Source: Capsulimonadales bacterium (GTDB lineage: Bacteria; Armatimonadota; Armatimonadia; Armatimonadales; Armatimonadaceae). From it: DNA of 38,202 nucleotides. Shown in pieces: positions 36,001-38,202 of the stretch. The stretch spans positions 1 to 38,202 of the forward strand of contig JANRLW010000023.1 of the NCBI GenBank assembly GCA_033762295.1. Reading direction: 5' to 3'. The stretch's first letter is position 1. Each line of letters opens with the position of its first letter. A program made the position numbers.

Positions 36001-38202
36001 GCGGCGATCTACCGACTGGTCTTTCTGGAGCATGCCCTGTTGCTGACGCTGGGTTTGCTGGCGGGCATCGTGTCGGCGCTGGTGGCGGTCCTGCCGGCTT
36101 TGCGTTCGCCGGGAGCGGACGTTCCCTACCTCTCACTGACGATGACTCTGCTGGCGGTCCTTGTCACCGGCTTCCTGTTCACCGGCCTGGCGACCGCGCT
36201 CGCCCTGCGCACCCCGTTGCTCGCCGCCCTTCGTAACGAGTAACGGGCCGCCTCGTCATTCTCCATTAGGCATGTTATTGTGGTTTTCTTGCTGTTAAAA
36301 GTACCTGTTTTTCACGATTTTTTACGCGTTCCTGGCCCGATTGTCCGGTTTGTCTATATATTTAAGGTGGATGTCGGACAACCCGATGCGGAGTTGGAAA
36401 AAGGCCCGGAAAAACGCTTCCGGGCAGGAGAGGTCCCTGAAGCGTTATGGTTTCCCTGATTAAACAATGGCTCGCGGTTGGCGCTCTGCTCCTGATCGCC
36501 ACGCCGGTCGATGCCGAAGTCGTTTCGCTGACGCTTGGTATCCGAATGAACTGCCCCTACGGCCTGGCCGGGTGATGGGGGAACGTCCGATACGGACTGG
36601 CACGCCTGGAGGGCGTGGAAACGATCTCTGAAACGGCCGATGCGGCGGCCCAGACCTGCGAAATACGCATGAAAGGTCCGGGTATTCCCGACCCCAGGGC
36701 TCTGGCCGACCATATCGAGCGGAAGATGCGGGTGGGGGCGACCCTGCGTGGCATCGAAATCAAGGCGGTCGGTCGCCTCACCGAGCGAGACGACGGCCTC
36801 TATCTCGAAATTTCCGGAACGAAAGAAACGATCCGACTGGCCGCCCTGCGCCGAAAGGTGCAGTGGGATATACCCGCCGGGCGGGAACAGGAGGCGACAC
36901 CCGCCGAGAAAAACGCCTTCGAGCGACTGCGCGGATCACGCAAAAACGAACTCGTTCTGGTGACCGGGCCGCTCGTCCGACCGGTCGGCGAGGAACCGAT
37001 GGTGCTCGAAGTGCGCTCCTTCGGTCCCGCTCCGACCCGACGGACCGCTCCCCCCCGCTCACCGTCCGGACCATAACCGGACCATAACCGGCAAACGATT
37101 GTACTGATGAATATTGTTGCTTTTCAAGAGAATGGAAGTGGTTTTCATGATGATTCAACGGAAGCTGCGGAGGCGCACCGATCGCGCGTCCCGAATTTTC
37201 ACCGTTTTTCCCGCGATGATGATTCTCACCCTTTCCGCGTCGTGCCTGCTGGCAACGACGTCCGCCCGGGCGCAGTCCACCGATCCCGCCGTGGTCGGTA
37301 AGTGGAGCGAAGTGCAGGATTGGCCGGTTCGCGCCATTCATATGAATCTTCTGCCGACCGGAAAGGTCATGTTCTGGACCCGCCACCCGGAAGGGTTCCC
37401 GCCCTATCTCTGGGACCCCGATACCAGTGCGCTGGCCGGCGCGCTGCCGACAGCCGGCTGGCAGGAGTTCTGCGCCTCGCATGTTCTGCTCGCCGACGGA
37501 CAGATGCTGCTGACCGGCGGCCACCTGACGGCGGACGGTCATGGCGCGCCGCATGCCGCTCTGTATAACTCCTTCACCAACACCTGGACGCGCCAGCCCG
37601 ATATGAATAACGGACGCTGGTATCCCTCCAGCGTTCTCCTCGGAAACGGCGATGTGGTCGTTCTGTCGGGCAGCTATAACACCAGCTACGCCAACAACAT
37701 GATGCCGCAGGTCTTCAGCAACGGCGTCTGGCGCAACCTGACGGGGGCGCAGCGGTTCCAGGAACTGTATCCCTATCTCCACCTCGCTCCGAACGGGAAA
37801 GTCTTCTTATCGGGTCCGGTCCAGTCCACGTACTACCTCGATACGGCCGGCAACGGTTCGTGGATCTATGTCGGCGAACGAAAATTCCCGAACCGCGATT
37901 ACGGATGCTCGGTGATGTACGGAGATGGCAAGGTGTTCTTTGCCGGTGGCGGCGACCCGCCGACCGAAACCGCCGAGGTCATCGACCTGAATGCCCCCGT
38001 TCCCACCTGGCGGTACGTCGGCTCCCTGTCGAAGCAGCGTCGACAGATCAACGCCACCCTGCTGCCGGACGGAAAGATCCTGGTTACGGGCGGTGTCAGC
38101 GGACCGGGCTGGAACGACATGACGACCCCGGTGCTTTCCTCCGAGGTCTGGGACCCGGTCACCGAGAAGTTCACGACCTGGGCCAGCATGGCGGTCGGAC
38201 GC

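Follow-up and report, generated by a model that had tools for sequence, protein, structure and literature searches.

The window, by which we mean the whole 38,202-nucleotide stretch that was analysed, ends in two genes on the forward strand. The first is a predicted selenoprotein gene with an in-frame TGA, and the second, which begins 70 nt after it, is the 5' part of a galactose/glyoxal-oxidase-like gene. The features are listed below, with the evidence for each in brackets.

36426..36433, + strand: Shine-Dalgarno-like AGGAGAGG, 13 nt 5' of the ATG (read from the sequence; its function is presumed)
36447..37076, + strand: predicted selenoprotein gene, 209 codons and a TAA stop (sequence; full-length alignments with 14 and 65 relatives)
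36447..36515, + strand: signal-peptide-like N-terminus, residues 1-23, ending in LLLIATPVDA before EV (model helix and shared pattern)
36516..36758, + strand: HMA-like ferredoxin-fold domain, residues 24-104 (AlphaFold2, VIA, HHalign)
36552..36554, + strand: TGC codon of Cys36, with which the C-x6-U site opens (Cys in 15/15 Sec forms)
36573..36575, + strand: in-frame TGA, predicted to be read as Sec43 (15 distinct genes have TGA in this column)
36601..36617, + strand: putative SECIS hairpin CACGCC-UGGAG-GGCGUG (-11.0 kcal/mol; conserved in 15/15 Sec forms)
36657..36659, + strand: Cys71 codon, a third cysteine enriched among Sec forms (11/14 full-length Sec forms)
36747..37040, + strand: OB-like beta-barrel domain, residues 101-198 (AlphaFold2; VIA against PriB/SSB OB folds, Z 7-8.3)
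37147..38202, + strand: first 352 codons of a galactose/glyoxal-oxidase-like gene, which is truncated at the contig end (Pfam, tblastn, motifs)

The gene and its in-frame TGA

From the ATG at 36447 to the TAA at 37074-37076 the frame is open apart from the TGA at 36573-36575, where an ORF of 42 codons closes. Gene calling with table 11 returns two pieces, 36447..36575 (42 aa) and 36615..37076 (153 aa). The initial annotation had joined these into one gene of 209 codons with the TGA at codon 43, within the site motif C36-P-Y-G-L-A-G-U43-W, and the window sequence bears this out. It had also described the frame as coding-like across the TGA; the frame is indeed open, but the GC3 of 0.77 that it gave becomes 0.71 both before and after the TGA when recomputed. 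Protein conservation persists past the UGA, with nearly invariant residues between L51 and R190 in alignments of 14 and 65 relatives. TGA also serves as the stop of ordinary genes within the window.

The product had been proposed to be secreted, and a signal-peptide-like N-terminus is present: the AlphaFold2 model has a hydrophobic N-terminal helix at residues 2-15, and a cleavage-like pattern, A-x-A followed by E/Q-V, is common to the other Sec forms. An Rfam scan of 36000-38202 returned two chance miRNA rows and nothing else.

Selenocysteine decoding and the wider family

Searching 401 genomes reproduced the earlier result that TGA occupies the same codon in three other genomes (G011, G026 and G329) and Cys in five (G084, G125, G396, G184 and G249). 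In total we found 15 distinct TGA forms, hereafter Sec forms, spread over three phylum-level groups; two of the 15 came from a protein profile instead of a DNA pattern, and both carry the hairpin described below. The Sec43 column is Cys in 131 other domains. Sec and Cys forms are intermixed within one clade with 100% support, which implies at least three changes between them. Positions 36 and 43 are retained or lost jointly in 148/149 domains, and the Cys pair at these positions is retained in 132/149, fused forms without a signal peptide included. In 16/149 domains the fold is kept although neither site residue is present, suggesting that the fold has a Cys-independent role too. The family amounts to 606 clusters, none of them named, which contradicts the earlier impression that a wider search adds just two loci.

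The comparisons strongly support that the UGA at codon 43 is read by the standard bacterial route of SelA, SelB, SelD and tRNA-Sec, and that a coding-region SECIS hairpin, with its loop 31 nt past this codon, directs the decoding. The host genome of the window encodes SelA, SelB, a TGA-containing SelD and tRNA-Sec. SelA, reported before for the genomes of the other Sec forms then known, is now found in 6/6 genomes that hold one.

A hairpin of the form NNCGCC-N5-GGCGNN is present in 15/15 Sec forms, with the stem starting 25 nt and the loop 31 nt downstream of the UGA. Thus the shared, co-varying hairpin of the initial annotation stands, but not the distance of 27 nt that was assigned to it. 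Across the 15 Sec forms, 95.6% of the cells in the hairpin alignment columns are paired, and only 27-48% pair when the register is slid. The closing pair occurs as five pair types (C-G in four, A-U in three, G-C in two, U-G in two and U-A in one; unpaired in three; n=15). The covariation score of the hairpin, 0.230 against 0.109 in shuffled alignments, was reached by 0/500 shuffles, with covariation limited to one pair and the four core pairs invariant. The caveat that only four Sec forms had been seen and that covariation rested on a single pair has therefore changed in its first part, the count now being 15, and holds in its second.

Codon usage was also constrained in this region. Frozen codons are confined to the hairpin stretch (R53 CGC 13/13, L54 CTG 13/13, G56 GGC 13/13, V47 GTC 12/12), whereas other conserved residues use two to five codons among 13 Sec forms. 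The two Cys forms looked at initially were without the hairpin; of 15 Cys forms now compared, one has it. The bSECIS model in section 5 of PMC13188914 specifies a loop of 3-9 nt, a stem of 4-16 bp, an MFE of -7.5 kcal/mol or lower, a spacing of 16-37 nt and, within the first two positions of the loop, a G with G/U after it. All 15 Sec-form hairpins lie within the four criteria published in that section, with stems of 5-6 bp or longer, a spacing of 31 nt, MFE values from -7.8 to -12.5 kcal/mol and the loop UGGAN in 14/15 and UGUCA in one. We rejected a second hairpin, which lies closer to the UGA and reads GUCCG-AUA-CGGAC in the window; its register differs between sequences and it is unsupported by RNAalifold.

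Collectively, the 15 Sec forms, the frozen synonymous sites, the covariation and the machinery in 6/6 genomes support the Sec/Cys pair and the read-through proposed before. Judged from these sequence comparisons, codon 43 is almost certainly decoded as selenocysteine and the protein a true selenoprotein. That the TGA is instead a genuine stop, or an error of sequencing, and the gene a pseudogene or a pair of fragments, is very improbable: standard gene calling does break the gene there and many database entries of ~140-190 aa are pieces that start just after the TGA, but 15 independent sequences have TGA in the same column with the protein conserved on both sides, the hairpin is conserved and co-varying, Sec machinery is present in every genome, and the 42-aa piece forms strand 1 and the site loop of one folded domain.

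We also asked whether the family has been described. No Pfam or NCBIfam model covers it, and a cluster search with P0004, a natural Cys homologue, gave unnamed clusters and a single lead, in which 16% of members carry HMA (score 0.83). The family was not found in selenoprotein catalogues, including a 2026 catalogue of 119 selenoprotein families. Its designation as an undescribed selenoprotein family is upheld by this lack of a catalogue entry, and the comparisons made here make a new bacterial selenoprotein family a well-supported assignment.

The neighbouring oxidase and the protein fold

The oxidase gene starts at ATG 37147 (or TTG 37114). Its translation matches Glyoxal_oxid_N (E 1.8e-14) together with Kelch motifs, NCBIfam GlxA matches weakly, and tblastn aligns it with the oxidase part of locus L045 at 37.6% identity (E 3.6e-54). 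The fragment has a signal-peptide-like start and the motifs FCASH and GRWYPS. As had been noted, the gene is cut by the contig end and runs off at 38202; its YH and SVTH motifs would fall past this point. Contig C93 was tried as the missing 3' end and rejected, as the 159-nt overlap is only 80% identical. In 12 partner oxidases, the Cys, Tyr, Tyr-His and His motifs are invariant and align with galactose oxidase. We take these to be the cross-link Cys and Tyr, the axial Tyr-His and a further His ligand. A relative matches structures of galactose oxidase (E 8.5e-53) and GlxA (4unm, 4.5e-41).

An oxidase gene adjoins the Sec form on the same strand in 12/12 loci with enough flank. In fused members, the domain is joined to oxidases with Glyoxal_oxid_N, Kelch and GO-like_E_set; signal-peptide-like starts are present in stand-alone forms and absent in fused ones. 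The tie to the oxidase proposed initially is thus upheld by adjacency and gene fusion, but the orientation of the fusion has to be reversed, as fused Cys forms begin with the oxidase and end with the family domain. A Pfam search of the flanking ORFs of 13 related loci found the oxidase as the sole conserved neighbour and no copper-handling gene. One locus, L067, has a haem peroxidase, the oxidase and a Cys form side by side, and the context of related loci is carbohydrate-active (GH115_C, GH31, glucuronyl esterase, sulfatase). Gene order and fusion show a family dedicated to galactose/glyoxal-oxidase-like copper radical oxidases, either adjacent to them or fused at their C-terminal end. On the same grounds, it is very likely that the selenoprotein works together with the oxidase.

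The AlphaFold2 model of the protein (pLDDT 92.7, pTM 0.84) has one folded domain spanning the UGA. Its secondary structure elements are strand 27-34, helix 39-52, strands 57-60 and 70-75, helix 83-93 and a strand from 98. As described in the initial annotation, this is a beta-alpha-beta-beta-alpha-beta domain, the fold of PF00403, followed by an OB-like barrel. For residues 24-104 the best structural matches are HMA domains, with VIA Z scores of 6.5-8.0 (top match, rmsd 2.9 over 75 residues) and rmsd values of 2.2-3.0 over 64-75 residues for most HMA chains; the top rows in Foldseek are CCS chains (E 2.3e-3). Common folds by themselves can give structural scores of this size (Foldseek E >= 2e-3, VIA Z <= 8.3).

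Profile comparison by HHalign with 28 HMA domains gave a moderate match (probability 52.4%, E 1.4e-4, 49 columns), in which U43 pairs with the second Cys of the CxxC motif of HMA; the match leaves out the first Cys. The site, C-x6-U/C, lies at the topological place of the HMA metal loop but differs from GMxCxxC. The window protein has no Pfam match to PF00403 at E<=1, the domain region is unmatched in Pfam at E<=0.01 in 12 relatives, the members P0019, P0023, P0046, P0009 and P0143 have no HMA match at that threshold, and a sequence profile search of the PDB found no HMA at E<=10, with two chance rows only. For membership of the HMA family, as claimed initially, the only links are the fold and the moderate profile match; PF00403, the PDB sequence search and the CxxC spacing provide none. 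The N-terminal domain would have an HMA-type (Atx1/CopZ/MerP-like) fold that has diverged.

Proposed copper delivery, its rivals and related systems

An apo-oxidase requires copper for building its Tyr-Cys radical cofactor. The protein probably helps the oxidases to acquire copper or to stay active, and the best explanation as a whole, to which we give a probability of about 55%, is a secreted selenoprotein that delivers copper to the partner oxidase. Without its signal peptide, the secreted selenoprotein would have ~185 residues in two domains, with a metal-site loop widened from CxxC to C-x6-C/U. A soft-metal site made up of Cys36 and Sec43, and in most Sec forms also of Cys71, would capture Cu(I) and pass it to the apo-oxidase, and the OB-like domain may act as a docking module. 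The C-x6-U spacing, the HHalign probability of 52% and the lack of a conserved copper-handling gene nearby speak against this explanation. So do the missing sequence matches to HMA, the modest structural scores, the 16/149 domains with neither site residue, and the contrast in signal-peptide-like starts between stand-alone and fused members.

If Sec43 served redox chemistry instead, it would react with H2O2, the radical or over-oxidised states of the oxidase, and the selenenylsulfide would be resolved by Cys36 or Cys71, so that the oxidase is protected or re-activated. Copper radical oxidases give off H2O2, and Cys71, which resembles a resolving cysteine, accompanies Sec in 11/14 full-length Sec forms against 13/132 Cys..Cys domains. 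Section 7 of PMC13188914 describes most known selenoproteins as redox-active, and the peroxidase DtpA is needed for GlxA maturation according to PMC4736821. However, the fold is HMA-like and not thioredoxin-like, and U43 falls on a Cys that binds metal in HMA domains. Moreover, the L067 operon already has its haem peroxidase, and the loci show no evident reductant for an exported selenenylsulfide. We consider a redox partner unlikely, at about one chance in four. Copper delivery or maturation as the function, in preference to redox chemistry, comes somewhat short of an even chance.

The domain could also be a non-catalytic docking or substrate-binding module, with the OB-like barrel binding the oxidase or a glycan, and with a purely structural bridge between residues 36 and 43. 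The domains that keep the fold without either site residue, the carbohydrate-active loci and the predicted export of the stand-alone forms would all fit such a module. A costly Sec insertion with a dedicated SECIS would be surprising for a mere structural bridge, though, and both the retention of the Cys pair, which extends to fused forms without a signal peptide, and the repeated Sec/Cys interchange, typical of functional sites, make this alternative improbable.

Selenoprotein families so far are mostly thioredoxin-fold redox proteins of anaerobes. The present one adds a family in soil-type phyla (Armatimonadota, Verrucomicrobiota and Planctomycetota) and is among the few selenoproteins predicted to be exported. 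Its 606 clusters, for which Pfam and NCBIfam have no model, track copper radical oxidases, enzymes of biotechnological interest whose bacterial biology and maturation are little known. If the copper-chaperone reading is true, bacterial galactose/glyoxal-oxidase-like enzymes would gain their first dedicated accessory-domain family, which occurs stand-alone, in tandem and fused across several phyla. If the site binds copper, the natural Sec, Cys and site-less versions would let the contribution of selenium to metal trafficking be asked. For annotation, the Sec-form genes are currently broken into two fragments by gene callers.

The copper delivery proposed for this protein can be set beside several known systems. 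The family has a common fold with the HMA metallochaperones (Atx1/CopZ/CCS domain 1/MerP; PF00403), as well as a Cys pair spread over helix 1 and the loop that follows strand 1, and an 'L..L.GV' stretch after the site. It differs from them in its motif, C-P-Y-G-x3-C/U-W (C-x6-C) instead of GMxCxxC, in its constant OB-like barrel, and in its setting, with copper radical oxidases in place of P-type ATPases or mer operons. Like MerP, the stand-alone members open with a signal-peptide-like segment, and the Sec form of G405 has a faint match to MerP (E 0.027). CCS likewise combines an HMA domain with a second beta-rich domain and serves a single target cuproenzyme; the match to it is weak and mainly in the HMA part, and its second domain is SOD-like whereas that of the family is OB-like.

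Table 1 of PMC13188914 already lists families with Sec in canonical HMA-type sites, where it likewise takes the place of a Cys that serves as metal ligand. Those families have CxxC spacing and known models, whereas here there is no NCBIfam model and Sec is at the second position of the C-x6-U site. Tentatively, and with less confidence than in copper delivery as such, the protein may be the first Sec-dependent copper chaperone, an exported protein derived from HMA whose Cys-Sec(-Cys) site would supply its dedicated copper radical oxidase with Cu(I). A precedent for such help comes from GlxA, a bacterial radical copper oxidase that needs the copper chaperone Sco to mature, according to PMC4736821. 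In that Streptomyces system, Sco (and ECuC) act with DtpA, so that maturation of GlxA needs a copper chaperone and a peroxidase, which compares with the gene trio at L067. Sco is a thioredoxin-fold protein unrelated to the family, and the maturation role proposed for the family would be an analogy to it only.

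A predicted selenocysteine codon and its hairpin

Read directly from the sequence, the gene under study runs from an ATG through one in-frame TGA to a TAA, with AGGAGAGG upstream of the ATG (36447). The features are as follows.

36447-37076, + strand: predicted selenoprotein gene, ATG start, in-frame TGA, TAA stop at 37074-37076
36573-36575, + strand: in-frame TGA, reached after 42 codons, with the frame open beyond it to the TAA
37147 onward: oxidase gene, starting 70 bases 3' of the predicted selenoprotein gene and cut by the contig end after 352 codons

With the TGA read as U, the product has 209 residues and the motif N-C36-P-Y-G-L-A-G-U43-W. 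Gene calling with table 11 breaks the gene in two, a 42-aa and a 153-aa product, and the latter is a separate database protein (P0002). GC3 is 0.71 on both sides of the TGA, rather than the 0.77 first reported. TGA is an ordinary stop codon in this organism and ends three Pfam-supported genes of the window (29365-30261, 30137-31618 and 32048-32908). The 5' neighbor, separated by a 200-nt AT-rich spacer, encodes a MacB/FtsX-type ABC transporter with no apparent link to the gene. A tandem pair of the 11-nt unit ccggaccataa occupies 37063-37087, and the TAA lies inside the first copy.

The genome (94.5% complete) encodes SelA (E 1.9e-131), SelB (318 bits, above cut-off), a tRNA-Sec with anticodon TCA, and a SelD that has its own in-frame TGA and is itself a selenoprotein. 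The selD gene (L019, contig C128; TGA at locus position 1531) reads RCAGUASKIG around the site, and a hairpin, GGGCC-GUC-GGCCC, begins 12 nt 3' of the UGA in its mRNA. The reported association of SelA with genes carrying the TGA (Sec forms) extends to 6/6 Sec-form genomes (G000, the window's own, and G011, G026, G329, G405 and G828). In the 11 genomes whose members are all Cys forms, which have Cys at the same column, SelA is clear in 6, limited to a 40-residue match in G1187, and unmatched in 4: G084 (95% complete), G125 (93%), G184 (95%) and G402.

Searching 401 genomes of the phylum, we recovered the codon-43 TGA in three others (G011, G026 and G329) and a Cys codon in its place in five (G084, G125, G396, G184 and G249), as the initial annotation had stated. 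Scanning metagenomes with the pattern G-I-x3-C-P-Y-G-L-x2-TGA-TGG, which places no constraint 3' of the TGA, returned 12 loci, which contain 9 additional distinct Sec-form genes. Profile searches of two other phylum samples, made without the DNA pattern, added two more (CPTGLGEUF in G405 and CRYGLAGUW in G828), bringing the distinct Sec forms to 15, where only four had been known. In a quick IQ-TREE search of 140 domains, from which the L054, G405 and G828 Sec forms were left out, all 12 remaining Sec forms sit in one 46-member clade (SH-aLRT 100), mixed among Cys forms. Branches with good support require three or more Sec/Cys changes, and parsimony gives six.

All 15 Sec forms carry xxN-CGC-CTG-GAN/TCA-GGC-GTN at a constant distance from the TGA, giving a hairpin NNCGCC-N5-GGCGNN. 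Standard pairs fill 95.6% of hairpin cells in the 15-sequence alignment, compared with 27-48% when the 3' partner is slid by 1-3 columns. Four core pairs do not vary; the second pair is A-U in 9, G-U in 5 and unpaired in 1, and the closing pair is C-G in 4, A-U in 3, G-C in 2, U-G in 2, U-A in 1 and unpaired in 3. The covariation score is 0.230 versus 0.109 in shuffles, a value reached by 0/500 of them. The closing pair links the wobble base of the Val codon with the second position of a variable codon, which encodes Ala, Gln, Leu, Ser, Glu, Arg or another residue. Codon choice is frozen here and nowhere else in the gene: among 13 Sec forms R53 is CGC, L54 CTG and G56 GGC in 13/13 each, V47 is GTC in 12/12 and E49 GAG in 11/12, and all the remaining conserved residues use two to five codons each (G39 four, L40 five, R190 four). 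The synonymous sites of V47 and E49 (36585-36593, and the corresponding columns across the Sec forms) are frozen without any single-register hairpin to account for them; RNAalifold pairs the UGA itself with the GUC of V47.

The initial annotation also held that the two Cys forms it looked at lack the hairpin; in a set of 15 Cys forms this is true of 14 (1-4 of 6 pairs possible), and the exception, L066b, forms it and shares a genome with the G405 Sec form. On G405:C1:31916-39405 (L066, L072 and L073), L066b lies 3.3 kb from selA, and the Sec form is on another contig. The hairpin agrees with all four criteria of a published bacterial SECIS model, as that source sets them out (PMC13188914). Its loop is 5 nt, or 3 nt when the loop ends pair, with G at position 2 followed by G (U in G026); the stem is 5-6 bp or longer, the UGA-to-loop distance 31 nt and the MFE -7.8 to -12.5 kcal/mol. 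Collectively, the sequence comparisons establish a predicted, SECIS-directed selenocysteine at a conserved paired site, and we conclude, with a probability of about 0.95, that the gene encodes a genuine selenoprotein. The recoding mechanism is the standard one, already known.

Family architecture and fold

A 15-member profile searched against 1.84 billion representative proteins matched 606 clusters with an E-value cut-off of 1e-3, of which 187 remain at 1e-30; the best 150 of the 606 were inspected. Members occur as stand-alone proteins (about 200 aa, hydrophobic N-terminus), as tandem two-domain proteins, or as C-terminal domains on oxidases of 700-1290 aa carrying Glyoxal_oxid_N, Kelch and GO-like_E_set domains; one fusion is N-terminal (P0145). 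Of 149 site-covering domains, 132 have Cys (or U) at position 36 as well as at position 43, and 16 lack the residue at either position. The exception, P0005 (193 aa, JGI), reads CPYGLGSWY, with Trp in place of the Sec or Cys of its relatives; this may be a TGA translated as Trp by the gene caller. Cys71 is present in 11/14 full-length Sec forms versus 13/132 Cys..Cys domains.

Among the proteins listed, 17 begin immediately past the Sec residue, P0002 being an example, or deeper in the domain, and all seven that reach the hairpin region have R-L-x-G-V; contig ends may explain some of these truncations. In the tandem proteins (P0009-P0017, P0021, P0043 and P0107) the second copy has neither site residue (S/G-P-Y-G-x3-P/S/R/I-W). 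Several first copies are fragments beginning after the TGA, so this subtype too contains Sec. The family is sparse, with 8 clear genomes among 400 others of the window's phylum, 0/400 in the G405 phylum sample and 4/400 in that of G401, counts that rest on scoring a small number of candidates in each genome.

The AlphaFold2 model of the window protein (66 sequences; pLDDT 92.7, pTM 0.84) shows, after an N-terminal helix, a strand at 27-34, the loop holding C36-P-Y-G, a helix (39-52) whose second turn contains U43, two strands (57-60 and 70-75), a further helix (83-93), a strand at 98-114 and a beta-barrel up to residue 194. For residues 24-104, Foldseek found nothing in the PDB at E<=1e-3; its top rows were CCS (E 2.3e-3), Atx1 and PacS (TM by target 0.66-0.73). 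VIA-align (48,161 chains) matched the same residues to HMA domains of RAN1, ATP7B, CopA, HAH1, Ccc2a, GolB and NmerA at Z 6.5-8.0, and residues 101-198 to PriB/SSB OB folds at Z 7-8.3, values that are common for common folds. Foldseek placed residues 101-198 with OB domains of Asp/Lys-tRNA synthetase. Profile-profile comparison with 28 HMA domains from related genomes gave 52% probability (E 1.4e-4) over 49 columns, with the first Cys outside the match, U43 aligned to the second CxxC cysteine, and the subsequent L..L.GV also matched. No Pfam family matched the domain in 12 members scanned, and no NCBIfam model matched the window protein or 11 relatives beyond a faint MerP row (E 0.027). The HMA assignment therefore stands as a likeness of fold, but not as membership of PF00403 in its present definition; the domain is plausibly HMA-derived, with a loop four residues wider. 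Two loci, G381:C48:17777-17950 (L110) and G1205:C284:1831-1998, match canonical HMA (PF00403) with one in-frame TGA and are candidates for classical HMA proteins that contain Sec.

Genomic pairing with copper radical oxidases

Genomic context ties the family to copper radical oxidases as dedicated partners. The oxidase pairing described for the first few loci extends to the larger set of Sec forms: a same-strand oxidase adjoins all 12 Sec-form genes with sufficient flank, downstream in ten (window, G011, G026, G329, L051, L053, L056a, L056b, L058 and G828) and upstream in two (L048 and G405); the contigs of L054, L055 and L059 stop within about 300 nt. Stand-alone Cys forms adjoin an oxidase in L063, L066, L067, L069 and L070, and L061 and L062 have none within the DNA examined. 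The edge of L065 shows nothing more than an ORF containing GH115_C, a domain that L063 and L070 carry joined to GO-like oxidases. No other conserved neighbor was seen in the related loci checked.

The window's oxidase has a signal-peptide-like N-terminus, a Glyoxal_oxid_N match (E 1.8e-14) and Kelch motifs. F-C, R-W-Y-P, Y-H and a later H are unchanged across 12 partner oxidases, and we take these to be the cross-link residues and copper ligands. The partners match galactose oxidase structures at E 8.5e-53, agreeing motif for motif (FCxG, GRxY, YHS, SVTH), and GlxA (4unm) at 4.5e-41.

On one metagenome contig, also bearing L057, two modules stand in tandem (L056 2407-5083, - strand) in the order Sec-form gene, oxidase, Sec-form gene, oxidase. 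Three Verrucomicrobiota-titled loci carry, upstream of the module, a further galactose-oxidase-like gene with a GH115 C-terminal domain (L063 1-1578, L070 1-1449 and L065 3-800). Contig C93 of the window's genome opens inside a galactose-oxidase-like gene and carries its 3' half (L071, G000:C93:1-2046, bases 1-1119, + strand) with YH, SVTH, an E-set domain and two FN3-like repeats. Because its 159-nt overlap with the window's end is only 80% identical, we rejected it as a clean continuation and consider it a paralogue or strain variant.

Proposed role and known systems

If the C36/U43 site binds soft metal, it would offer two ligands, or three where Cys71 is present. We infer that such a site would take up Cu(I) for delivery to the apo-oxidase; the oxidase's Tyr-Cys cofactor forms only after copper has been bound. 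The main rival, a redox function that would deal with H2O2 or the radical, is favored by what selenoproteins usually do and by the presence of Cys71, and we consider it the less likely of the two.

The family, its site and its partnership with the oxidase are new. Among the 119 prokaryotic selenoprotein families in Table 1 of the May 2026 catalogue (PMC13188914), none has the same motif, fold or context. The words 'copper', 'oxidase' and 'Armatimonad' are absent from the main texts of BSepDB (PMC13326102) and deep-Sep (PMC12013277), and the literature searched held no paper joining 'selenoprotein' with 'glyoxal oxidase'.

For Cu(I) delivery there are two precedents. Maturation of Streptomyces GlxA requires both Sco, a chaperone, and DtpA, a peroxidase (PMC4736821), and canonical HMA-type sites that contain Sec are listed in the catalogue (PMC13188914 Table 1). 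In L067 (525-4561, + strand), a haem peroxidase (An_peroxidase) gene lies directly 5' of the oxidase and Cys-form genes, followed by GH31 genes. Peroxidase, oxidase and Cys form in one operon mirror the DtpA/GlxA/Sco trio, and by analogy the chaperone's place would be left for the protein studied here.
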